From positions 1 to 25,543 of the forward strand of contig JAGHCC010000169.1 in NCBI GenBank assembly GCA_021160685.1: a stretch of 25,543 nt of DNA, in the 5' to 3' direction. The notes under the pieces are model-generated. The model was given only the letters and a program-made list of their open reading frames with translations, did no database searches and was not told where the DNA came from. Shown here in pieces: positions 2,208 to 24,050 of this stretch; the stretch's first letter is position 1, and the number at the start of each line of letters is the position of its first letter. The position numbers and the translations under genes are program-made. The stretch comes from Desulfobulbaceae bacterium. GTDB lineage: Bacteria; Desulfobacterota; Desulfobulbia; Desulfobulbales; SURF-16.

Positions 2208-2891
2208 ATGCTGATTAGAGACTGGATGGCGAAAGACGTCCTGACTGTGGACGAAAACACCTCGCTGATGCGGGCCACCCGGATGATGAAGGAAAATACA
2301 ATCCGGCGGCTGCCTGTTGTCTCCCATGGTAAATTAAGCGGAATTATCACCGATCGTGATGTTAAGGATGCCTCGCCCTCAAAAACAACCTCGCTTGATG
2401 TCCATGAACTCTATTATCTTCTTTCCGAAATGAAGGTAAAAGATGTCATGACCCCAAGCCCCATGACCCTTCACGGTGATGATTCCCTGGAAAAAGCAGC
2501 GCTGATCATGCTGGAAAGCCGAATCTCCGGCATTCCGGTGGCTGATGACTCCGGGCATCTTACCGGTCTGCTCAGTGAAACAGATGTTTTACGTGGTTTT
2601 ATCCGCAGCACCGGCATTAAGAACGGGGCCATGCAGTATATCTTTGATCTGGAGGACAAGCCGGGTTCGGTCACTGAGGTGATTAAGACGATGCGTGATT
2701 TCAAGGCGCGAATCCTCAGTGTAATGACCTCTTTCGAGGATGTTGAAGAGGGGATGAAGCGGGTATCAATCCGGGTTGATGGCGGAGATGATGATCGTAT
2801 CGATGATTTGACCAAACAGTTGCAAGACAACGTTCAGGTGCTCTTTTATGCCCGTGACGATCTGACAAATCTCCCTGCAAAAAACAAATAA
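2208..2891 (+). CDS. CBS-pair plus ACT-like domain protein (AcuB-like)
   Basis: Two CBS repeats (IRRLPVV..GKLSGIITDRD; ISGIPVADDSGHLTGLLSETD) followed by an ACT-like segment (LEDKPGSVTEVIKTM). Strong RBS AAGGAGG upstream of the ATG. Confidence 0.88.
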   Translation: MLIRDWMAKDVLTVDENTSLMRATRMMKENTIRRLPVVSHGKLSGIITDRDVKDASPSKTTSLDVHELYYLLSEMKVKDVMTPSPMTLHGDDSLEKAALIMLESRISGIPVADDSGHLTGLLSETDVLRGFIRSTGIKNGAMQYIFDLEDKPGSVTEVIKTMRDFKARILSVMTSFEDVEEGMKRVSIRVDGGDDDRIDDLTKQLQDNVQVLFYARDDLTNLPAKNK

Positions 2892-2922
2892 AGTAACAAA
2901 TTACAATTTTTTGGCGGCAATT

Positions 2923-2953
2923 GCGGAGAAAATTTTTAAAAAATTTTCTCCGC
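2923..2953 (+). terminator. Intrinsic terminator hairpin between convergent genes
   Basis: Perfect 15-bp inverted repeat GCGGAGAAAATTTTT-a-AAAAATTTTCTCCGC followed by TGTTTTTC on the + strand. Confidence 0.7.
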
Positions 2954-2974
2954 TGTTTTTCTTCTCCTCTCCCT

Positions 2975-5434
2975 TCAACCCTTCATAATTACTTCAAGCT
3001 CATCTCCGTCGACGATCTCCTTTTTAATCAGGACAGCCGCCAATTTTTCTATCTTCTCCCAGTGTCGCTCCACCAGCTTTTCCGCCTTGACCGTGGCATC
3101 ACCAATCCACCGGGACAAGGCCTTTTCAATTTCTTGCCGAAAAAACTGCTTACTGACATTCTGGGCCAGAGTGTCAAAATGAATAGGGCCAAGTTCCTCA
3201 TCCATTCCCATATTGGCGATAGCCACATAGGCATGACGAGTTGCCTCTTCCAGGTCGTTTGCCGCCCCCGAGTCAATCCCTTTATCTCCGAATTCCCTCA
3301 CTTCCGCCATTCGGCCGGCCAGCAGGACACAAATATTATTAAAAACCTCTTTCCTGGAAACATTGCCGGCAAAATCTTCAGTTGAATATGAGATAAAACC
3401 CAAACTTTGCAGTCTCGGCGTTATGGTCACCTGTTCGATCTTGATATCCGGCAGCAGCAGGGAAGAAAGCACCGCATGACCGGCCTCATGATAAGCGGTC
3501 ATCCTGAGATCTTCTTCCAGATTTCTGATCCGTGTTTTTTCAAGTCTGGTGCCATACTTGATGATATTGATCTGTTCAATCAAAATCTCTTCGCTGATAA
3601 AGTCAAGACCGTTACGGATGGCCGCAAGCGATGCTTCCTTGCCGATCCGCTGCAGATCATAGCCATTCATTCCAGAGATATAACGAGCCACCCTTTCAGC
3701 GTCTATTTTACCGTCATTTGGTTTTTCCAGTATTTTTTCGATGAAAAATTTCCTGGCCTCCTTATCTAATTCCGGCACCTCGACAAAAAGATCAATTCTG
3801 TCCGGCGCTATCAACAGGGGACTCACCTCATCACGATTCTGAGCCGTGGCAAAGGTAAAGACAAATTCATCCGGATCAGTGGGCAGGCTGTCGAGCTCCA
3901 AAACCAATGGGTCCACCGGCATATAGGCATAGACCCCATCGACAAGCCCCTTCACATCAACCCCATCCAGGAAAACAATGCTTGGCGCGAACTCACGGGC
4001 TTTCTGATACACCAGCCAGATATAATTGGGATCAAAAAGATCACTGCGGGAAACATAGATGTAGGGCCGGCCGGCTTCCCTGGCAAACGCCTTACCAAAC
4101 ATTGTTTTCACTACACCTGCCGGGCCATGCAGCAGCATCCCCCTGGGGAGGTCAATGGCAAATTCCCTGACCAGTTCCGGGTTCTGGAGAATACCGATAA
4201 TCTCTTTAAATGTTTTTTTAATGGGCTCATTACCGGCAATATCATCAAAACACACAGATGAAAATTCCACAGCCGGCAGATCTTCCTGAAAGACCCCCTT
4301 GACCGGGGGCAATTTTTTCAGTTCTGCCTGTTCAAGGGTGATCAGCACCGTGTTCGCCTTTTCCTCCTCCTTCCAGCTTAACTCCACGGTCTCATTTCTC
4401 TTGAATAATTTCCGGACCAGCAGATCACCTTCCTGCAAAATTTCGTTCAAAAAAACCTTAACCTGCTGAGATGGTCTGAAAATAATTCTTGCCGGCAGCT
4501 TGTCAGTGTCCCGGATACATTGGGTCATTTTTGCCAAAATAATGTCCGGCAACTTCCGCCGAACCCTTTTTACATTGATAACAGGGGCAAAAGAGAGGGT
4601 CAACAGGGTCATGAGCTCTTTACGATCCTGCCATTCAAGCGTAATCCGGCTCTTGTCCAGCAGGCTTTTCGCCAGTAAATCCAGGGTGGCGGAACCGATA
4701 CGGACCATTGACGCCAGACTGAGTTTATTGAAAAGAACAAGATCATTGCGGGACATGACGGCAAGGAGCTTTGGCACAATGGCATCCTGAATCAATTCGT
4801 AAACAACTTTTTTCTCCTTTGAAACGGCCGCCATCATCAGCGATTGGGCTCTGACCTTATTTTTTTTGAAAGAATCAAGAAACTCTTTGTTCTGATACAG
4901 AACACTGCCAAGCGTGGAGGTAAAAACAAAGACAACCTCGCTGCAATCAAGGCCACTCTCATGATCGCTTGCTGTTATCAGATCGAGAAGGGCGAGCTGC
5001 AGCTGATTATCCGCTTTCTCGATAGAGTCAAAGACGATGACCGATTTAGGCTCTTTTTTTAGAAATCTGACCAGTTTTCCTTCCTGGACTTCATCATGGA
5101 CAAACTTGTGGCCAAGAAGTGTTCCCGCCTCCTCCGGCTCCGCATACTGCTCCATATCAAAAATCTTGAACCCTTTAATCTCATCAACATGTTCACTTAG
5201 CAATCGAGCCAGATAATTTTTGCCAACTGTTTCCGGCCCCAGAAAGGTAAAAATTGCCTTAGGCGGGGCTTCAATAGGCTTAAAGGCCATATGAATAAAG
5301 GCATCGATGACTTCATCAATGGCTTCATCCTGGTCAAAAATAATCGTTTTGAGCCGAGACCGAAGTTTTTCGAATTTTTCAAAAATATTTAGATTTGCAG
5401 TAGTCTGTTTCAATTCTTTTCCCGGTTTCCTCAC
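2975..5434 (-). CDS. Soluble AAA family protein: ClpA/B D2-like (AAA_2) module + FtsH-like AAA module + peptidase M41
   Basis: The N-terminus follows the ClpB D2 pattern (IIFDQDEAIDEV, FLGPETVGKN, DMEQY, VIVFDSIEKA, VFVFTSTLG). The C-terminal half follows FtsH (FDDIAG, PRGMLLHGPAGVVKT, TAYHEAGHA, GAANDLEEAT, MGMDEELG). No transmembrane segment is visible. Confidence 0.9.
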   Translation of the reverse strand: MRKPGKELKQTTANLNIFEKFEKLRSRLKTIIFDQDEAIDEVIDAFIHMAFKPIEAPPKAIFTFLGPETVGKNYLARLLSEHVDEIKGFKIFDMEQYAEPEEAGTLLGHKFVHDEVQEGKLVRFLKKEPKSVIVFDSIEKADNQLQLALLDLITASDHESGLDCSEVVFVFTSTLGSVLYQNKEFLDSFKKNKVRAQSLMMAAVSKEKKVVYELIQDAIVPKLLAVMSRNDLVLFNKLSLASMVRIGSATLDLLAKSLLDKSRITLEWQDRKELMTLLTLSFAPVINVKRVRRKLPDIILAKMTQCIRDTDKLPARIIFRPSQQVKVFLNEILQEGDLLVRKLFKRNETVELSWKEEEKANTVLITLEQAELKKLPPVKGVFQEDLPAVEFSSVCFDDIAGNEPIKKTFKEIIGILQNPELVREFAIDLPRGMLLHGPAGVVKTMFGKAFAREAGRPYIYVSRSDLFDPNYIWLVYQKAREFAPSIVFLDGVDVKGLVDGVYAYMPVDPLVLELDSLPTDPDEFVFTFATAQNRDEVSPLLIAPDRIDLFVEVPELDKEARKFFIEKILEKPNDGKIDAERVARYISGMNGYDLQRIGKEASLAAIRNGLDFISEEILIEQINIIKYGTRLEKTRIRNLEEDLRMTAYHEAGHAVLSSLLLPDIKIEQVTITPRLQSLGFISYSTEDFAGNVSRKEVFNNICVLLAGRMAEVREFGDKGIDSGAANDLEEATRHAYVAIANMGMDEELGPIHFDTLAQNVSKQFFRQEIEKALSRWIGDATVKAEKLVERHWEKIEKLAAVLIKKEIVDGDELEVIMKG

Positions 5435-7139: not shown

Positions 7140-9158
7140 TCAGTCAGCCAATCCGAGGGGCAACTGATCCTTTCTGAACGGCTGCCATGTAGATTTATCC
7201 CTGTTATCCGGATCGAATTTGCCGGTTGTATGATCAATGGGCAGAAAGGTGATTCCTTTGGGAACCTGAAAATCTCCGCCCGGATACATTTTTTCCGCTT
7301 TACGCATAAAATCAAGCCAAATCGGCGCACAGGCCCGGCCACCGGTTTCCTTTCTTCCCAGAGTCTTTTTTTTGTCGAACCCCATCCAGACGCCGGCTGC
7401 CAGTGACGGAGTATAGCCGACGAACCAGGCATCCCTGTTCTGATCTGTTGTGCCTGTCTTACCCGCTGAAGCTGACTGCAACCCCCAAGCCTTCTTTCCT
7501 GTTCCTTCGGCAATAACACTCTGAAGCAGATCCGTAATCTGGAACGCTGTGCGCGGGTCAAGGGCCGGAGTGGCAGACTGGTGATGCTCCAGCAAAATCT
7601 TTCCATCACAATCTTCAATCTTTGTAAAAAAAACCGGTTTGCTCCACTGTCCGCCATTGGCAAAAACCGTGTAGGCCGAGGTGATCTCCAACAGAGACAT
7701 CTCGGAAGATCCCAGGGCCAGGGAAAGATCCGGCCGCAATTCAGAGTGAATTCCCATCATTTCAGCCAGGTCAATCACCCCGTCAATGCCGATTTCCTGC
7801 AGCAACTTGATGGCGACGATATTACGCGACTGAACAAGACCACTCCAGAGGGTTGTCGGACCCTCAAATTTGTTATCAAAATTTTTCGGTTGCCATAAAC
7901 TTGAACCGGATCTTTTCAAGCTGAGAGGCGTATCATCTAAAAGAGAGGCGCCATTATACCCCCTGGTAAAAGCGGCGGCGTAGACAAGAGGTTTAAAAGC
8001 CGAGCCAGGCTGCCGTCTGGCCTGGGTTGCCCGGTTAAACTGGCTGCGGGAAAAATTAGTTCCCCCGGTCAAGGCACGAACCAGACCCGTTTTGACCTCC
8101 AAGACGACAAGGGCGGCCTGGGGCAATTTTTTTGAAGATGAAGACTGGCGAATTGCCCAATGGGCCACGCCTTTCTGGACAGCCAGATCAGCCTCGCGCT
8201 GCAGACGTTGATCCAGGCTAGTGTGGATGGTCAAACCGCCCTCAAACAACGCATCACGACCAAACTTTTTTCTTACCTCGTTACGGACCTGCTGAATAAA
8301 ATATTTTGCATCCAGAGGCGCGGTATCACTCCCGCCCCATACCAGGGTCTGCTTGAAAGCCCTGCGTGCAGCAGTGGGCGTGATAAAGCCTTCCTCCGCC
8401 ATCCTGTTCAGCACATAGGCCTGTCTTTTTTTAGCCCGCTTGTAATGCTTAAAAGGAGAATAACGGCTCGGAGCCTGGGGCAGGCCGGCAAGGATGGATA
8501 ACTCGGCGAGATTCAGATCCCGTGCCTTCTTGTCAAAATAAACATGGGCAGCCGCTTCCACGCCGTAGGCGCCCGCGCCAAGGTAAATCTGGTTCAGGTA
8601 AATCACGATGATTTCTTCCTTGGCCAGCATCTTATCTATACGATAGGCCAGGATGGCCTCCTTGACTTTCCTTGTATAGGTCTTTTCCGGTGTCAGCAGC
8701 AGGGAGCGGGCAACCTGCTGGGTGATGGTGCTGCCTCCCTGCTTCTTTCCCCCTTCCCTGACATTATGAATAATAGCTCGCAGGATTGACCAGCTGTCCA
8801 CCCCGGGATGCTGGTAAAACCGGTCATCCTCTGCCGCGATAAAAGCCTTTGGCAGAAGATCCGGCATTTCACTCAATGATATGACCCGCCTGTTCCGGGT
8901 AAAAATTCGATCTATTTCTTTTCCCTGGTTGTCAAGGATCAAAGTTGCCTGGGGCGGCCGATAACTCTCCAGGGAACTGATGTCAGGGATATTGAGAGCG
9001 ACAAAAACATAGAGAAGTGTACCGATAAACAAGGTCAACAGACCACAGATAAAAAACAGGTAGAATGAGAGATGGACATGGGTCCATTGCCAGATCCTGG
9101 TTTTTATTTGTTTCTTTTTTGGGGGAGTCGAGCGTTTTTTCGCTGGGCGTGATGTCAC
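7140..9158 (-). CDS. Class A penicillin-binding protein (PBP1A family; transglycosylase + transpeptidase)
   Basis: GT51 motifs EDDRFYQHPG, GGSTITQQ, RKVKE, YLN; transpeptidase motifs SAFK, SRN, KTG; one N-terminal TM helix. The track start (TTG 9218) lies inside the upstream terminator, so GTG 9158 is preferred. The start is uncertain. Confidence 0.92.
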   Translation of the reverse strand: MTSRPAKKRSTPPKKKQIKTRIWQWTHVHLSFYLFFICGLLTLFIGTLLYVFVALNIPDISSLESYRPPQATLILDNQGKEIDRIFTRNRRVISLSEMPDLLPKAFIAAEDDRFYQHPGVDSWSILRAIIHNVREGGKKQGGSTITQQVARSLLLTPEKTYTRKVKEAILAYRIDKMLAKEEIIVIYLNQIYLGAGAYGVEAAAHVYFDKKARDLNLAELSILAGLPQAPSRYSPFKHYKRAKKRQAYVLNRMAEEGFITPTAARRAFKQTLVWGGSDTAPLDAKYFIQQVRNEVRKKFGRDALFEGGLTIHTSLDQRLQREADLAVQKGVAHWAIRQSSSSKKLPQAALVVLEVKTGLVRALTGGTNFSRSQFNRATQARRQPGSAFKPLVYAAAFTRGYNGASLLDDTPLSLKRSGSSLWQPKNFDNKFEGPTTLWSGLVQSRNIVAIKLLQEIGIDGVIDLAEMMGIHSELRPDLSLALGSSEMSLLEITSAYTVFANGGQWSKPVFFTKIEDCDGKILLEHHQSATPALDPRTAFQITDLLQSVIAEGTGKKAWGLQSASAGKTGTTDQNRDAWFVGYTPSLAAGVWMGFDKKKTLGRKETGGRACAPIWLDFMRKAEKMYPGGDFQVPKGITFLPIDHTTGKFDPDNRDKSTWQPFRKDQLPLGLAD

Positions 9159-9187
9159 TTTGTTTCCGGCGATACTGAAATGTCCAT

Positions 9188-9224
9188 AAAAAAAGGCTGC
9201 TGCCCCGCAGGACAACAACCTTTT
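9188..9224 (-). terminator. Intrinsic terminator of the cytochrome c3 gene
   Basis: Minus strand AAGGTTGTTGTCC-loop-GGGCAGCAGCCTT pairs fully only with G-U wobbles on this strand and is followed by a U tract. Confidence 0.75.
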
Positions 9225-9256: not shown

Positions 9257-9649
9257 CTATTCTGCTTTTTTAGGATGACACTCTTTACATTTGGTCGGGC
9301 CCTTGCCTGCAGCTTTATGGCAGCCTTTACAGTTGGTATGGGCAGCGCCCTTGAAGCCTTTTATCTTTTTCTGTGATTCAGCGGTCATAGCATCATGACA
9401 GGAGGCACATTTTTCGATTTTCTGACCGTCTATATAGGCAACCTGCTTGCCATCCGCGTCCTGGCCATGATGGCACTCGCCACAAGTGGATCCTTCAAGT
9501 TTCTGATGCGCGGCATGGTTAAAGGTACACGGTTTTTTGCCGTCGGCTCCCAATGTCATCTCGGCCGGGCCGTTGTCAGCCATGGCGGCAACGCTGAAAC
9601 TCATCAGAAAAGCTAACGCTGCTGTACAGATAATAGATTTTTTGATCAT
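9257..9649 (-). CDS. Tetraheme cytochrome c3 (class III)
   Basis: Sec signal peptide (…VAAMA); four CxxCH motifs (CGECH, CASCH, CKGCH, CKECH); four extra His for distal ligation (FNHAAH, CHH, AAH); RBS AAAGGGGG. Confidence 0.93.
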   Translation of the reverse strand: MIKKSIICTAALAFLMSFSVAAMADNGPAEMTLGADGKKPCTFNHAAHQKLEGSTCGECHHGQDADGKQVAYIDGQKIEKCASCHDAMTAESQKKIKGFKGAAHTNCKGCHKAAGKGPTKCKECHPKKAE

Positions 9650-15109: not shown

Positions 15110-16843
15110 TTATTGAGAATTTATGGAGGAATCGGCAACCATCTCGGAATCGATCATTTTTTTGAGTCTTTCGACTGTTTCAGACAACGACGCGGTAAAG
15201 GTTTCACCGGTTCGCCGGCTTCGAATTTCAACAACACCGTCCTTGCTGAAACTCCGACCCACTGTCAGGCGAATCGGAATACCGATGAGGTCGGCATCCT
15301 TGAACTTCACTCCAGGCCGTTCATCACGGTCATCCATGAGAACCTCAACACCCCTGGCCAGACATTCTTTGTAAAGCCCCTCGGCCGCCTGGGTAATTTC
15401 TTCATCTTTCGTGGAAAGATTCAGCAAAACAACCTGGACCGGGGCAATGGGCATGGGTAAAATCATGCCGTCTTTGTCATGGTTCTGCTCAATGGCCGCA
15501 GCCACGCTACGACTGACGCCAATGCCGTAACAGCCCATGACAAAGGGCTGCTCCTGCCCCTGATTGTCGAGAAAAGTTGCATTTAAGGCCTCACTGTAGG
15601 AAGTGCCCAGCTTAAAGATATGGCCCACCTCAATCCCCCTGGTCAACTTAAGCCCGCCACCGCAGGACGGACAACGGTCATCAGCCGTGACCATACGGAG
15701 ATCGGCGAATTCCGAAACCTCAAAATCCCGGCCGACATTGACATTCAAAGAGTGAAAATTCTTTTCATTGGCCCCTATGGCAAAGTTGCTCATTTTCATC
15801 ACTTCAAGATCCGCCACAACCTTGATTTCCAAACTAACCGGGCCCAAATAACCGGTGGGGACACCAGTGACATCGAACACCTGCTTGTCGTCGGCCATCT
15901 CAACCTCCAGAGCGCCAAGCAGATTCTGGAGTTTGACCTCCTGCACCTCGTGATCGCCACGCATCAGGACAGCAACCGGCTTGCCATCAGCCAGATAAAC
16001 AAGTGTTTTCACTAATTCTTTTGCTGAGATGTTCAAAAACTCGGTAACGGCCTTCACCTTACGTTTCCCTGGAGTCTCTATCTTTTCCATCGGCAGCAGA
16101 TCCGGAGTCTCGACTGCGGGACTTTCCATGGCCCTTGCTTTTTCCATGTTGGCGGCATAGCTGCAGTTCTTGCAGACAACGATGGTATCCTCGCCGGTAT
16201 CAGCCAACACCATAAATTCACGGGAAAAGCTGCCGCCAATGGTGCCGGAATCCGCCTCAACCGCCCGGAACTTCAGACCGCAGCGGCTGAAAATACGCTG
16301 GTAGGCCCTGTTCATTTTTTCATAGGTTTCACCGGCAGCCTCATCCGTGGCATCAAAACTGTAACCATCCTTCATAATAAATTCCCGGCCACGCATGAGT
16401 CCGAACCGAGGCCGGATCTCATCCCTAAACTTGGTCTGGATCTGGTAGAGATTGATGGGTAGCTCACGGTAGGAATGGACATTCATCCGCACCAGGTCAG
16501 TGATGACCTCCTCATGGGTTGGCCCCAGACAGTTTTCGCGCTGATGACGATCGGTAAAACGCAGCAGTTCCGGGCCATATTTCTGCCAGCGGCCGGACTC
16601 CTGCCAGAGTTCAGCGGGCTGGACCATGGGGAGCAGCAACTCCTGGGCGCCGGCCCGGTTCATCTCTTCACGAACAATCTGCTCAACCTTCCGGATTGCG
16701 GCCAGCCCCAGGGGAAGATACGAATATATTCCGGAGGCCAGTTTACGGATAAATCCGGCCCGAAGCATAAGCTGATGGCTGATCACCTCGGCCTCAGCCG
16801 GAGTTTATTTTAAAGTGGGGATAAGAAATTTTGAAAAACGCAT
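15110..16843 (-). CDS. proS: Prolyl-tRNA synthetase (bacterial type with INS editing domain); in-frame TAA at codon 13
   Basis: ATG 16843 has RBS AAGGA and lies 10 nt after the ispG stop. It reads [29 protein letters not shown] and stays in frame with the track ORF. Motifs [49 protein letters not shown]. Confidence 0.95.
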
Positions 16844-20090: not shown

Positions 20091-21422
20091 ATGTTGTGGA
20101 ATAATATAAAAAATAAATTGTCTAAAAAGCTGTCAAACAGTGTTTATTCGCTCTGGATTGAGCCAATCTGCTGCCTTAAAGAAGACAGTCAGGGGTTGGA
20201 ACTGGCCGGACCGGATGTTTTTTTCTGTAATTGGATTAAAAATAATTACCTGACAGAGATCAAGAGCTGCCTGGATGAACTTGACCGAAATAATATCACT
20301 ATCCGGTTCACTGTTGATGGTTCGAGTCGAAGGCCGCTGCTCACCGGCAGAAGCGAGCAACTGCGCCTGCCAACCATGCCCAAAGCGCGGTCATACGTTC
20401 GAGCCCTGCACCCCCGCCACACCTTTGCTGAATTTGTGGTCGGAGAAAGCAATATGGTTGCCCACGGTGCCAGCGAGGCAATGGCTATGAACGATACGAC
20501 TCTCGGACCTTGTCTTTATATCAAGGCCGCCACCGGCCTGGGAAAAAGCCACTTGACCCATGCCGTGGCCCACCATATCCTGAATCACTCGCCGGGAACG
20601 CGACTGCAATACCTCACGGCCCAGCAACTCACAGGAGAAATGGTTAAAGCGATTCAAAATAACAGCATGAACAGCTTTAAAAAGAAGTATCAAAACCACT
20701 GCGATATTCTGCTGATTGAAGATATTCACACCTTGGGCGGCAAACCCAAGACCCAGAGTGAACTGGCGGAAACTCTTGATTATCTTATGGATCGAGGAAA
20801 ACGGATTATCATGACCAGCTCCATGACCCCGCTGGATATTCCTGACATTGACTCTGCTTTCCGCTCCAGATTAACCTCTGGACTAATCACCACCATCAAC
20901 CCTCCGGACCTAAAAACCCGTATTCGAATTATCAAAAGAAAAGCCGACAACTGCCAGCTTCCCCTCAACGAAGAACAGATCCTGTTCCTGGCTGAACAGG
21001 TCAAAGGTGACATCCGCCAAATCAAAAGTATCATTGTCGGCATCAAGGCTCAATGCGGCCTGCTCAAAACCAGCCCTGATCTTACTTTGGTCAAGGAAAC
21101 CCTGAGAGATATTATTGGTCGCCACAATGACCTGACCGCCGAAACCATCCGTAATTTTATCGCCAGCCAGTTCAAGGTTACCATTAATGATCTCTGCTCC
21201 AAATCCAGGAAAAAAGCCATTACCTTTCCTCGGCAGATTTCAATGTACCTGGCCCGTAAATACACGAACCAGCCTCTGGCCGATATTGGCAGAGCTTTTA
21301 ACCGGGATCATTCAACCGTGGTTCATTCCGTTCGGGTCATCTCCGATCAAATCACACGATCCGGCAGCGTGCGGGGCCAAGTCGAACTTATTTCCACCAA
21401 GCTTGAAAAACAGTTTTTGTAG
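20091..21422 (+). CDS. dnaA: DnaA family protein (likely a second, divergent paralog)
   Basis: YSLWIEP domain I, HTFAEFVVGESN, Walker A TGLGKSHL, Walker B LLIEDIH, domain IV RQISMYLAR and FNRDHSTVVHS. No dnaN follows. Confidence 0.92.
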   Translation: MLWNNIKNKLSKKLSNSVYSLWIEPICCLKEDSQGLELAGPDVFFCNWIKNNYLTEIKSCLDELDRNNITIRFTVDGSSRRPLLTGRSEQLRLPTMPKARSYVRALHPRHTFAEFVVGESNMVAHGASEAMAMNDTTLGPCLYIKAATGLGKSHLTHAVAHHILNHSPGTRLQYLTAQQLTGEMVKAIQNNSMNSFKKKYQNHCDILLIEDIHTLGGKPKTQSELAETLDYLMDRGKRIIMTSSMTPLDIPDIDSAFRSRLTSGLITTINPPDLKTRIRIIKRKADNCQLPLNEEQILFLAEQVKGDIRQIKSIIVGIKAQCGLLKTSPDLTLVKETLRDIIGRHNDLTAETIRNFIASQFKVTINDLCSKSRKKAITFPRQISMYLARKYTNQPLADIGRAFNRDHSTVVHSVRVISDQITRSGSVRGQVELISTKLEKQFL

Positions 21423-21813
21423 CTCTTCGCAAGCAATGAATACAGATTGAAACGAGTCGTTCCGGCCAACCATCAGAATGGCGCGGAGAAGAGAACTTTT
21501 ATGTCAGCCTCATTTGGAATTTATCTGGTGAGGCTCGACCATACGATCTTTCTTCTGATCCTGCAAAATTTTCCATTTAATTTTTTCACAAAAATATCCT
21601 TCACGCCTTTTCTTTTCTATTTTCCCCGCAGTATTCAGTTAAACAAAATTAATATATTTCTACAGTGCATTTGTCCAATTTTTCCTTTTAACAATTCATG
21701 GAAATCTGTCATAATTTTAATAGAAAAGATGCGACGCTCGTGGCTTGCAAAAAGGTCTTGCCTGTTGCCACGCAAACCGTAAAAAAGCACAAAGGAGATA
21801 ACACGGGAGATGG

Positions 21814-21828
21814 CGGCATATTTTTTGC
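21814..21828 (+). promoter_or_regulatory. Candidate sigma54 (-24/-12) promoter
   Basis: CGGCATATTTTTTGC has GGCA and TTGC at exactly the canonical spacing of TGGCAC-N5-TTGC, about 80 bp upstream of ATG 21910. Confidence 0.55.
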
Positions 21829-21909
21829 GAGTCAATTAAGTAAGATAAAAATTCTGTGCCGCCAAAAACTTATCCCGCTGCTCAAAAAAATAATCAGAGA
21901 TGTCAACCA

Positions 21910-23292
21910 ATGAACACTTTACAGAAATTCAACATCAAAGAAAAAATGATTCTTGGCTACATGCCTATTCTGCTGGCGATCATCGCAATTGCCGTTTTTT
22001 CTCTGCAAAGCCTCAACCAGTTTGAAAGAATCAATAAAGACATCGTGGAAAACGATACCGTTCTCCTCCTGACAACAGACAAATTAGTGGATAATCTTCT
22101 GGCCCAGGAAGCGTATGGCCGGCGCCATATGATTCTGGGGAGCCCGCAGATGCTGGAGTTATTCCGGCAGCGCAGTCATGCCTTTGATTCGCTTATGGAC
22201 CAAATCCGAGCCCTGCCGAAACGTAAAAATATTCCCATCGAACAGCTGGCATCTCTCCATTATGAACTGAATGAGCTGTATACAAAAAATTTTGCATCAT
22301 TAAACAACTCAGCAGCAGGTCCTGTTCCGAGATACGACAATCAAATACAAGGGAAGCTTGACGAGATTCTTGTGCTTATCCAACGTATTGAAAAAGTCGG
22401 CTGGGAAAACCAGCACCAAAAAATAGTCAATGCCAGCACCATCGGCATGAGAACATTCCGGATTACGGGACTGTTATCGGTTTTGGGATTCATCCTGGGA
22501 TTTGTCGCAATATCGTTGATCAGCCGCAGTATCTCCCGCTCAATCCAACAGTTAAAATCTTCCGCCAAGCTGATATCGGAAGGACATTTTGACCATTACC
22601 CGAACGTCGGCACCAAAGACGAATTCAGAGAACTTGCCAGCTCTTTTGGTGACATGGCTCAACGATTGGCGTTTCTGGAAGTGATCCATCGGGACGCAAA
22701 TCCCTTAACCAGACTGCCTGGGGGAACAGCCATTGAAGATGTTCTTAAAAACAGTCTGGCTACGAATAAAAATATTTCATTCTGCATGCTGGACCTGGAT
22801 AATTTCAAGTCATTTAACGACCGCTACGGATATGCCCAGGGCAATGAAATCATCAAGGCGACAGCGGAATTAATCAAATCCACCATTTCCAGGTATAACT
22901 CTGATGACAACTTTGTCGGTCACATTGGCGGAGATGATTTTGTCGCGATTGTCAATCAACGTCACCACAGGGCAATATGCGAGACTATTATCAAAGAATT
23001 TGACCGAATGGTTCCCGATTATTATAATGTCAAAGACAGAAAAAAAGGCTACATTGTCGGCAATACGCGACAGGGACTGGAAGTGAGATTTCCCATCATG
23101 ACTATTTCAATCGCAGTGGTGAACGTTGACCCTCAGAGTCCGACAAATCATTTAATAATCGGGGAGATTGCCGCAGAATTAAAAGGGCACGCCAAGTCGA
23201 TCCCGGGCAGCGTGTTCGTTGTCAACCGCAGAGGTCAGAAAAGACAACAACCCGGTTTCCGGCCTAAGCTTGTCGGCCAAGGTGGGAAATGA
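21910..23292 (+). CDS. Membrane protein: periplasmic helical sensor + HAMP + GGDEF-family domain (GGDDF variant)
   Basis: Two TM segments (MILGYMPILLAIIAIAVFSL; ITGLLSVLGFILGFVAISLI); HAMP (SIQQLKSSAKLISEGHF...DEFRELASSFGDMAQRL); DANPLTRLP, LDLDNFKSFNDRYG, GHIGGDDF, IMTISIAV. ATG 21910 is preferred over the track start at 21856. Confidence 0.88.
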   Translation: MNTLQKFNIKEKMILGYMPILLAIIAIAVFSLQSLNQFERINKDIVENDTVLLLTTDKLVDNLLAQEAYGRRHMILGSPQMLELFRQRSHAFDSLMDQIRALPKRKNIPIEQLASLHYELNELYTKNFASLNNSAAGPVPRYDNQIQGKLDEILVLIQRIEKVGWENQHQKIVNASTIGMRTFRITGLLSVLGFILGFVAISLISRSISRSIQQLKSSAKLISEGHFDHYPNVGTKDEFRELASSFGDMAQRLAFLEVIHRDANPLTRLPGGTAIEDVLKNSLATNKNISFCMLDLDNFKSFNDRYGYAQGNEIIKATAELIKSTISRYNSDDNFVGHIGGDDFVAIVNQRHHRAICETIIKEFDRMVPDYYNVKDRKKGYIVGNTRQGLEVRFPIMTISIAVVNVDPQSPTNHLIIGEIAAELKGHAKSIPGSVFVVNRRGQKRQQPGFRPKLVGQGGK

Positions 23293-24050
23293 AACATTTC
23301 AGGCTACTAAGGACTTGTTCCTTAATAAACTTTACATCTTGCTTGTCTTTTTACCCATACTCTGCGTTGCACAAACAGTTACATAACCGAGCTATGCGCC
23401 TGTTTGTGCGCCTTGATTATGGACAAAAAATCCTGCGCAATATTGTAAAATTTATTTCGTCTCAAATCCTAAAGTCAGATTTTCGACCATTCATTCTCCT
23501 GTTGTCCTGTGTCGGGTTGCTTACAAGCGGCTGTGTTGACAAATCCTTATTCAACACCTATCCCCACTATTACCTGTCCATTGAAAGTGAAAATATTGAA
23601 CCGGAAATCATCCGTCTTGAAAAAACCATAGCCGATAAACCAGATTCAGCGGCTGCCGCAGAGTCATTTTATTATCTTTCCCTCCTCTACTCACACCACA
23701 AAAAACGACAACCCGATTACCAAAAGGCCTTGCAGAATCTTGAAAGCTATATCCGGCTCAATCCCGAGGCAGGAAAGAAAAATGACGTCAAGTACCTTCT
23801 GTCGTTATTCCGGAAGATTGAGACATTAGGAACCAAAAATAATACACTAAAAGCCAAAAACAATGCCCTGAAAGCCAAAAATGATGCCTTAAAAAAAGAT
23901 AGAGTGAAGCTGAAACGCAACAGCACAACATTAAAAAGGGAAAAAGAGCAGCTGACAACAGAAAATCTAAATCTGCAGGACATAATTGAACAGCTGAAGC
24001 TTCTTGATATCCAGCTTGAGAAAAGAAGAAAATCCGTAACTATTCAGTAG
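23289..24050 (+). CDS. Putative lipoprotein with a TPR-like helix pair and C-terminal coiled coil (QseG/YfhG-like)
   Basis: ATGA overlap with the upstream stop; hydrophobic stretch ending LLTSGC; TPR-like SFYYLSLLYSH...DYQKALQNLESYIRLNP; heptad tail ending EQLKLLDIQLEKRRK. The true start may be downstream (e.g. 23394). Confidence 0.65.
   Translation: MKHFRLLRTCSLINFTSCLSFYPYSALHKQLHNRAMRLFVRLDYGQKILRNIVKFISSQILKSDFRPFILLLSCVGLLTSGCVDKSLFNTYPHYYLSIESENIEPEIIRLEKTIADKPDSAAAAESFYYLSLLYSHHKKRQPDYQKALQNLESYIRLNPEAGKKNDVKYLLSLFRKIETLGTKNNTLKAKNNALKAKNDALKKDRVKLKRNSTTLKREKEQLTTENLNLQDIIEQLKLLDIQLEKRRKSVTIQ
23833..23895 (+). repeat. Three imperfect 21-bp tandem repeats encoding heptads
   Basis: ccaaaaataatacactaaaag / ccaaaaacaatgccctgaaag / ccaaaaatgatgccttaaaaa, encoding KNNTLKA KNNALKA KNDALKK. 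Confidence 0.8.

Follow-up and report, generated by a model that had tools for sequence, protein, structure and literature searches.

Can a sensor of the kind found in the kinase QseE (GlrK), whose activity is set by the lipoprotein QseG, be wired to a nucleotide cyclase? The question is raised by two overlapping plus-strand genes, here called gene A and gene B, on a 25,543-nucleotide (nt) stretch of DNA from a Desulfobulbaceae bacterium (GCA_021160685.1, contig JAGHCC010000169.1, forward strand), the whole of which we call the window. Gene A encodes a predicted inner-membrane sensor with a GGDEF-type cyclase domain and gene B a predicted lipoprotein, and we consider it probable, judging from sequences and structural models, that together they make up a two-gene trans-envelope signalling operon in which the lipoprotein controls the sensor of the cyclase. 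A preliminary description of the locus had proposed that the sensor/lipoprotein pair of QseE and QseG was kept here and the kinase swapped for a GGDEF domain, and this idea is supported by kinase-type operons that carry a homologous sensor together with a homologous lipoprotein.

A sensor gene overlapping a lipoprotein gene

The layout given in the preliminary description, a gene for two transmembrane (TM) segments, HAMP and GGDEF whose stop codon overlaps, in an ATGA at 23289-23292, the start of a lipoprotein gene with a tetratricopeptide repeat (TPR)-like pair and a coiled-coil tail, was found in every part. Gene A has the following features.

21910..23292, plus strand: gene A, predicted inner-membrane sensor cyclase of 460 amino acids (aa), with TM1, a four-helix-bundle periplasmic domain, TM2, HAMP and a GGDDF-type GGDEF domain
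22015..22455, plus strand: periplasmic four-helix-bundle sensor, about residues 36-182, CHASE3/4HB_MCP-like (weak Pfam 4HB_MCP_1 and CHASE3 matches, Foldseek, VIA)
22105..22137, plus strand: membrane-distal tip motif on sensor helix 1 (Q66 E67 .. R71 R72 .. I75 L76), from conservation in 45 sequences
22516..22668, plus strand: HAMP domain, residues 203-253 (PF00672, E 1.7e-10)
22702..23229, plus strand: GGDEF-fold catalytic domain without an RxxD inhibitory site (I-site), from Pfam/NCBIfam GGDEF, Protein Data Bank (PDB) alignments to diguanylate cyclases and the family alignment
22843..22845, plus strand: Asn312, the base-specifying position (PleD Asp344, GacA Ser348), from alignment to solved GGDEF domains
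22927..22941, plus strand: active-site motif GGDDF, residues 340-344, invariant in 120/120 homologues

The open reading frame (ORF) of gene A opens at a GTG at 21856 and ends at 23292, and its homologues, of which there are more than 5000, with full-length identity of about 50%, all start at the ATG at 21910 (MNTLQKFNIKEKM). Besides HAMP, Pfam recognises GGDEF at residues 265-373 (E 1.1e-15); the GGDEF profile PF00990 scores 58.2 bits against a curated cut-off of 23.8, and TIGR00254 scores 57.7 bits. The output domain is GGDEF, and neither Pfam nor NCBIfam matched a HisKA or HATPase_c kinase core in gene A. In the AlphaFold model of residues 1-262 (predicted local distance difference test, pLDDT, 88) the chain passes from TM1 through a four-helix bundle and TM2 into HAMP, so arranged that two long membrane-spanning helices flank the helical periplasmic domain. 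No second copy of the sensor domain was found in the window's own genome, which is 78% complete.

The features of gene B that bear on its partnership with gene A are these.

23289..24050, plus strand: gene B, partner lipoprotein ORF of 253 codons, its ATG in the ATGA overlap after a Shine-Dalgarno sequence, AAGGTGGG
23532..23534, plus strand: lipobox cysteine (LLTSGC), with Val as the +2 residue; the sole invariant column among 36 aligned partner lipoproteins
23586..23777, plus strand: two-repeat TPR-like domain, model residues 39-102, motif YYLSLLYSH..QPDYQKAL, from the model and structural TPR matches
23781..24044, plus strand: one helix of 88 residues, a predicted coiled coil about 13 nm (about 130 Å) long, model residues 104-191, pLDDT 93-99
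23833..23894, plus strand: 21-nt tandem repeat in 3 copies, encoding heptads KNNxLKA (Tandem Repeats Finder)
23982..24032, plus strand: C-terminal tip motif IIEQLKLLDIQLEKRRK (family consensus IExLKxLDxxLExKxK), a candidate sensor-docking site, from family conservation

Homologues close to gene B have 182-199 aa and begin MKHFRLLK-LDFRPFILLLSCVGLLTSGC. The AlphaFold model of the lipoprotein (pLDDT 91) consists of the two-repeat TPR-like domain and the one 88-residue helix. Structural matches of the former are to generic TPR proteins only (E about 0.04-0.1 with Foldseek; Z 9-10 with VIA, across 70-80 residues), and the Pfam matches of the family are weak, to YfiO/BamD, TPR, TolA_bind_tri and generic coiled coils, the coiled-coil matches being present in most partner lipoproteins. 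Asp at +2 is absent from every member, and gene B is probably lipid-anchored in the outer membrane. Among the 36 aligned partner lipoproteins mean identity is 25%, and the best-conserved stretch is the C-terminal tip. The length of the periplasmic helix varies among close relatives, with homologues of 199, 192 and 182 aa differing by heptad units. A profile of the family collects 1637 cluster representatives at E <= 1e-10, well above 1000 of them across Desulfobacterota and Nitrospirota.

A sensor-lipoprotein cassette that appears to serve two outputs

Orthologues of gene A were surveyed in 81 genomes of the order and found in single copy in 17, which gave 16 foreign loci. A same-strand lipoprotein gene lies downstream in 15 of these 16, encoding a lipobox, a coiled coil, a motif resembling YYxLALLYSHxNNPxPDY and a C-terminal IExLKxLDxxLExKRK, and a lipoprotein follows the cyclase at 18/23 loci of a wider set that includes Geobacter, Geomonas, Desulfuromonadales, Smithella, Syntrophus and Nitrospirota. 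In most relatives the two genes either share 4 nt or lie no more than 25 nt apart, so that the pair is translationally coupled as well as co-conserved. Approached from the lipoprotein side, two representatives from the profile search (L114 and L120) have a HAMP-GGDEF gene upstream. In two loci the partner lipoprotein is short and lacks the TPR part. No third gene is conserved in the cyclase-lipoprotein operon, the downstream gene being convergent here and variable elsewhere.

The lipoprotein is also found with kinases. Two longer homologues, P0253 (434 aa, E 1.6e-49 to the family profile) and P0254 (343 aa), have two to four tandem TPR modules and the same tail, and their genes are flanked on one side by that of a HAMP-HisKA-HATPase kinase and on the other by that of a Response_reg/Sigma54_activat regulator. 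This arrangement, seen at loci of three assemblies (L117 and L119 among them), is the gene order of qseE-qseG-qseF. The sensor and HAMP of the kinases in these operons are homologous to those of gene A (BLASTP 4e-12; hhalign 99.4%, E 5e-22, and 99.7%, E 5e-26). The neighbourhood survey thus contains both HisKA and GGDEF outputs, with the lipoprotein co-conserved with the cyclase across phyla. Because lipoprotein homologues and a homologous sensor occur with GGDEF and with a kinase alike, the comparison supports the view that one sensor-lipoprotein cassette serves two outputs, cyclase and kinase. Cyclase-type and kinase-type operons would then be a natural experiment in the rewiring of sensory input modules to different outputs.

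Individual loci of the survey show features of their own. In one genus (L015, about 2880-3280, and L016) the spacer between gene A and the lipoprotein gene is 216-414 nt long and holds a short tandem repeat array that reads LKCLKYLK / EVPKVLEV in two frames. The gene call P0109 (543 aa, Nitrospirota-like) fuses the cyclase with the start of a lipoprotein, including signal peptide, lipobox and TPR motif, in one frame. Read-through, a frameshift or faulty assembly may lie behind this fusion, which confirms the adjacency of cyclase and lipoprotein in a Nitrospirota-like lineage.

How far the likeness to QseE and QseG goes

The QseG-QseE structure (PDB 9m08 and 8jwd) offers a direct comparison. 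By cryo-electron microscopy QseG is a parallel dimer in which an N-terminal helical domain is followed by a long C-terminal helix (mBio 2025, PMC12691602), the tip of which (L209, E213, R214, R219 and K220 in Salmonella numbering) straddles the dimer of QseE four-helix bundles (PMC12691602). The residues of QseE that contact QseG are E67, E69, R70, R73, Q74, V77, L78, D80 and T82, and the periplasm to be bridged is 19-25 nm wide (PMC12691602). The qseEGF system is reported only in Pseudomonadota, and that paper mentions neither GGDEF nor Desulfobacterota (PMC12691602). The structure of QseG-QseE dates from 2025 only, and the pair is described as a kinase system of Pseudomonadota; the locus in the window suggests that the same principle also drives cyclic-dinucleotide synthesis.

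In outline the two pairs are alike. QseE/GlrK, like gene A, has two TM segments, a periplasmic four-helix bundle and HAMP, and QseG, like gene B, is a lipoprotein encoded directly after the sensor gene, with an N-terminal helical domain, a long C-terminal helix and a conserved charged tip. The dimensions of both pairs suit a complex that spans the periplasm. They differ in output: QseE has HisKA/HATPase domains and a response regulator in its operon, whereas gene A has a GGDDF cyclase and no regulator in the operon. No sigma54 response regulator gene stands next to gene B, whose neighbour is a convergent minus-strand gene of the amino-oxidase family.

The sensors were also compared by sequence and by fold. 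The GlrK periplasmic segment that the preliminary description had set beside gene A is accurate, and BLASTP aligns gene A with E. coli GlrK collinearly and in the same register, but the match is not significant (18% identity, E 0.17). With hhalign the gene A family profile aligns to GlrK residues 1-250 at 94.4% over 233 columns (E 9e-8), while the controls NarX and Tar align with that profile over HAMP or TM2 plus HAMP only. Among Swiss-Prot models searched with Foldseek, QseE/GlrK is the top match of the gene A sensor (E 1.7e-5, TM-score 0.73, 256 residues), with KinB, chemoreceptors and NarQ/NarX close behind; against the PDB, NarQ comes first and the QseG-QseE complex 9m08 is at rank 7.

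The periplasmic residues that are invariant in the gene A family concentrate at the distal end of sensor helix 1. Two residues there, Q66 and R72, do not vary among 45 family sequences, and conservation of E67 and L76 is at least 90%. In the register shared by BLASTP and hhalign, the gene A residues Q66-E67..R71-R72..I75-L76 lie in register with the segment of QseE that contacts QseG (E69, R73, Q74, V77, L78). On the lipoprotein side, hhalign sets the C-terminal tip of the partner family on QseG LENLTDIERQLSTRK with a probability of 19%, placing L/D/KR in register with L198/E202/R208/K209; in that same 19% alignment the shared pattern is a Leu, an acidic residue at +4 and basic residues at +10/+11.

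Several observations weigh against the reading of gene A and gene B as a QseE/QseG-like pair. By VIA geometry the gene A sensor is a generic four-helix bundle: Z is 12-16 for many four-helix-bundle sensors, LytS-N and TorS among the matches, and LytS-N (Z 16) and KinB (14.5) score above QseE (11.9, rank 42). The periplasmic part of GlrK alone reaches only 7.8% with hhalign against the gene A family profile. Profile and structure searches for ties to the enterobacterial counterparts gave mixed results for the sensor. The lipoprotein aligns with the QseG alignment at the 19% already given, an alignment that is dominated by coiled coil and not significant, and the structural matches listed for the gene B model (Foldseek, VIA) do not include QseG. 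The N-terminal domain of gene B is TPR-like. Gene B has no match to Lipoprotein_20 (PF13942) at E <= 1, where E. coli QseG scores 1.5e-80, and Lipoprotein_20 is absent from the 25 families most matched by the 36 partner lipoproteins. A lipoprotein was not seen downstream of the cyclase in five Nitrospirota loci and in L026, and the sorting rules on which outer-membrane anchoring is assigned are unverified for this phylum. Gene B thus differs from QseG in its TPR-like N-terminal domain, in lacking a Lipoprotein_20 match and in having no significant sequence similarity, and these comparisons do not establish that it belongs to the enterobacterial QseG family. Enterobacterial QseE/QseG and the cassette in the window may share ancestry or may have converged.

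How the pair might work

We propose that gene A acts as a dimeric inner-membrane sensor in which TM2 and HAMP link the periplasmic four-helix bundle to the cyclase, and that gene B is a dedicated accessory lipoprotein that would span the periplasm. Its conserved, charged C-terminal tip could reach the membrane-distal tip of the sensor dimer, and docking there might set cyclase activity, by activation or by inhibition, much as QseG sets the kinase activity of QseE. The dimensions are compatible with such a bridge, as a helix of about 13 nm, the TPR domain, a linker and a sensor of about 6 nm add up to roughly the 19-25 nm of the periplasm. The physical contact between lipoprotein and sensor is one that we infer from these comparisons. 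Four-helix-bundle sensors read by a protein partner, as proposed here, are known in TorT-TorS and XylFII-LytS, but the partners in those systems are soluble binding proteins. Lpp, RcsF and NlpE also span the envelope but are unrelated lipoproteins, and neither they nor TorT-TorS and XylFII-LytS have a GGDEF output.

The length of helical lipoproteins matters for trans-periplasmic signalling in the case of Lpp and RcsF. A bolder form of the proposal, which we put forward as a doubtful one, is that the lipoprotein serves as a periplasm-spanning ruler: the coiled coil, which varies by whole heptads, or in kinase-type versions the stacked TPRs, would decide whether the tip reaches the sensor, so that the distance between the membranes, or the integrity of the envelope, would be converted into a messenger, and the product of the Asn-type enzymes would be something other than cyclic di-GMP (c-di-GMP), namely cGAMP (the 3'3' form of cyclic GMP-AMP) or cyclic di-AMP (c-di-AMP). 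If this were true, the pair would represent an ancient portable cassette common to cyclases and kinases, of which enterobacterial QseE/QseG is one derived branch.

It is also conceivable that the lipoprotein is a structural periplasmic coiled coil, a tether or ruler like Lpp or a TPR adaptor like CpoB or BamD, that is merely co-transcribed with gene A, and that the sensor binds a small ligand, as NarX, McpN and PcaY do. Such an account sits well with the fold of the sensor, which is closer to many ligand-binding four-helix bundles (Z 14-16) than to QseE (11.9), with the conserved Arg residues of helix 1, which nitrate sensors also have, and with the weak lipoprotein family matches to BamD/YfiO, TolA_bind_tri and generic coiled coils. 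We nevertheless think it unlikely, as the lipoprotein accompanies the same sensor in cyclase and kinase operons alike, a pattern difficult to account for if the two had no direct functional link; moreover the tight 4-nt overlap is kept across phyla, and the best-conserved part of the lipoprotein is its free C-terminal tip and not an anchoring or peptidoglycan-binding element.

The GGDDF domain and the GSU1937 family

The control of a cyclase by a lipoprotein presupposes that the domain is a cyclase, and its sequence is unusual in several respects. Where solved cyclases read GH..GDEV gene A reads GYAQGNEII, so that Asn312 replaces the Asp that reads guanine. Of the 120 best homologues 112 have Asn at this specificity position and 7 have Ser, and Ser is also the residue of members from the Geobacter lineage, Syntrophales and Nitrospirota; the Asn variant dominates the family. 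The motif GGDDF departs from the definition of an active cyclase, [G/A/S]G[D/E]E[F/Y]. Under the Goldilocks model (PMC6456294) a Hypr enzyme has Asp and not Glu at the third motif position, as GGDDF does, while at GacA position 348, where Hypr enzymes have Ser or Thr, gene A has Asn. An RxxD inhibitory site was looked for five residues before the motif and is not there, gene A reading ..SDDNFVGHI.. instead. Three stretches, GHIGGDDF, PLTRLPGG and DLDNFKxFNDxYGY, do not vary among 45 aligned family members, and the family likewise keeps invariant the metal-binding Asp, the KxFND Asn, GGDD and a C-terminal Lys.

A published enzyme has much the same architecture. GSU1937 of Geobacter sulfurreducens, which has transmembrane and HAMP parts, combines the Hypr serine with a GGDDF motif and is described as a second Hypr GGDEF with 'many homologues within Deltaproteobacteria' (PMC8835794). 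Its GGDDF domain, fused into GacA, makes cGAMP and c-di-GMP, and the GADDF mutant is dead; deletion of GSU1937 lowers a cGAMP reporter, by 70% on Fe(III) citrate, and the full-length wild-type protein showed no activity in E. coli (PMC8835794). The paper names no partner lipoprotein for it (PMC8835794). Like gene A, GSU1937 is deltaproteobacterial and combines TM segments, HAMP and GGDDF without EAL or HD-GYP, with the base-reading Asp replaced; it differs in having Ser at the specificity position, where gene A and 112/120 of the closest homologues have Asn. Homologues from Geobacter, Geomonas and Desulfuromonadales metagenome-assembled genomes align with gene A over its full length at 31-38% identity, have Ser and GGDDF, and agree with what is published of GSU1937. 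We place gene A in the GSU1937 family on the match to the published description, from which we infer the orthology and, likewise, the neighbour gene of GSU1937. Three primers from PMC8835794, sought in 239 Geobacterales genomes (with up to three mismatches in 124 of them), gave no match and the GSU1937 locus was not located there; the literature search found no paper naming GSU1936 or GSU1938. If the partnership holds for GSU1937 as well, absence of the partner lipoprotein in E. coli would be a possible explanation for the inactivity of the full-length protein.

The domain of gene A would make a cyclic dinucleotide, which could be c-di-GMP, 3'3'-cGAMP or another purine dinucleotide, and Asn312 could be able to read either purine. 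Four GEMM-I (c-di-GMP-I clan) riboswitches were found in the window's own genome (C232:5258-5332, C17:1110-1183, C175:3094-3189 and C80:17927-18010; L110-L113). Two of the four score best against the c-di-GMP-I-GGC variant model, yet have AA and not GA at the variant position. All four have G at the position that we take to be G20 in Vc2 numbering. They look like riboswitches of the c-di-GMP type, none being of the A20/cGAMP type, and lend no support to cGAMP as the product here.

We think it very unlikely that the GGDDF domain is no cyclase in vivo, having degenerated into a nucleotide-binding or protein-interaction domain that signals by protein contacts. That account draws on the motif, which lies outside the accepted definition, on the reported inactivity of the P. 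aeruginosa GGDDF/EAL protein PA3258 and of wild-type GSU1937 in E. coli (PMC8835794), and on the domain of gene A itself, whose match covers only positions 5-115 of 161 in the Pfam GGDEF profile and which has an unusual insert of about 30 residues before its last strand. But the GSU1937 GGDDF fusion is active and its GADDF mutant dead, deletion lowers the cGAMP reporter by up to 70% (PMC8835794), the catalytic residues listed above are invariant in the gene A family, and inactivity of GSU1937 in E. coli is what would be expected if the partner lipoprotein were required.

Control of an inner-membrane HAMP-GGDEF cyclase by an outer-membrane lipoprotein in response to envelope signals has been described in one other setting, the YfiBNR system (TpbB; Pseudomonas, E. 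coli), which has three components and in which YfiB sequesters the periplasmic repressor YfiR (PMC4655355, PMC4887326). A YfiBNR-like scheme, with gene B sequestering or releasing a separate periplasmic regulator encoded elsewhere and making no contact with the cyclase, has this precedent in its favour (PMC4655355, PMC4887326) but is extremely unlikely here, as no third operon gene is conserved and none in the window operon is yfiR-like, gene B matches no OmpA/Pal-like family (Pfam, NCBIfam), YfiB being described as of a different fold, and the gene A sensor is a four-helix bundle, the YfiN periplasmic domain not being among its listed matches.

The preliminary description knew of no account of such an arrangement. 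The literature searched likewise contains none of the lipoprotein partnership, which for GSU1937-type cyclases appears to be new, but the enzyme family has been published with GSU1937, and YfiBNR shows that lipoprotein control of a cyclase is known.

Two further observations concern the distribution of these enzymes. In a GGDDF catalytic subfamily (L051-L107) the likeness is confined to the catalytic domain, at 42-47% identity, and the N-terminal parts differ; its members are spread widely through Clostridia, Omnitrophota, Gemmatimonadota, Elusimicrobia and other groups. On a Geobacter-like metagenomic contig (L120:1-2058) the cyclase-lipoprotein pair stands directly after genes for a Rieske protein, cytochrome b and a multihaem cytochrome c, a neighbourhood of interest given the reported role of GSU1937 during Fe(III) reduction.

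A mobile element in the lipoprotein gene

The preliminary description made no remark on an insertion of the miniature inverted-repeat transposable element (MITE) type within gene B.

23308..23472, no strand assigned: MITE-like insertion of 162 nt, a TAA being duplicated in addition, bounded by the terminal inverted repeats TAAGGACTTG / CAAGTCCTTA, from genome copies and empty sites

The element falls within the first 82 codons of gene B and lies in frame in the n-region of the signal peptide, where it contributes 54 extra codons after MKHFRLL. A 96%-identical homologue of gene B lacks it and starts MKHFRLLK|LDFRPF, and the relative L009 likewise represents the empty site. The family to which it belongs, with units of about 165-190 nt, has at least 8 near-full copies of 79-86% identity in the window's own genome, on contigs C429, C11, C305, C226, C127, C133 and C142 and in the window, and some copies have an extra internal segment of 24 nt. 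The insertion is polymorphic, because contigs from two marine-sediment runs have the empty site, joining 23306 to 23469, and a vent metagenome contig bridges the 3' end of the element into gene B. Read depth across the element is about 10 times that of its flanks.

The hydrophobic core and the lipobox of gene B are intact despite the insertion, and the n-region of the signal peptide is now more than 60 residues long. With so long an n-region export is possibly impaired, and in this genome gene B may fail to be exported properly, which could leave the module partly out of action.

Promoter and neighbourhood

Transcription of the operon from a sigma54-type promoter, the remaining proposal of the preliminary description, is suggested by one element.

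21814..21829, plus strand: -24/-12 element CGGCATATTTTTTGCG, GG at 21815-16 and GC at 21827-28, with GG-N10-GC spacing in a TGGCAC/TTGC-like context and 8/12 consensus positions

Its spacing, GG-N10-GC, is exact, as had been noted, and it lies about 80 nt upstream of the start of gene A. Matches of 8/12 or better number 43 on both strands of the window, so that the element taken alone is not above chance. Upstream of the orthologues of close relatives the corresponding elements score 9/12 (L009), 10/12 (L012) and 11/12 (L013 and L015/16), and scores of at least 10/12 occur only twice in the whole window. No element was found upstream of L014 or of more distant orthologues of gene A. The genome encodes rpoN (Sigma54_DBD, E 2e-62, contig C318). 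We lean slightly towards sigma54-dependent transcription of the operon in this clade, going by these upstream sequences. A sigma70-like site is present at 21688-21715, and such sites are no commoner than in shuffled sequence.

Upstream of gene A lies dnaA (20091-21422, plus strand), with a 487-nt spacer between them; dnaA is followed here by the gene A-gene B operon and not by dnaN. A cluster of DnaA boxes next to dnaA, as at a replication origin, was sought and not found, and six single near-consensus boxes are dispersed across the window. The two best sigma54 matches of the window are on the minus strand, both inside listed ORFs, at 15986 (TGGCAAGCCGGTTGCT, 11/12) and at 9452 (TGGCAAGCAGGTTGCC, 10/12). 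The latter, TGGCAAGCAGGTTGCC, lies about 230 nt upstream of the start of a 692-aa ORF at 7140-9218.

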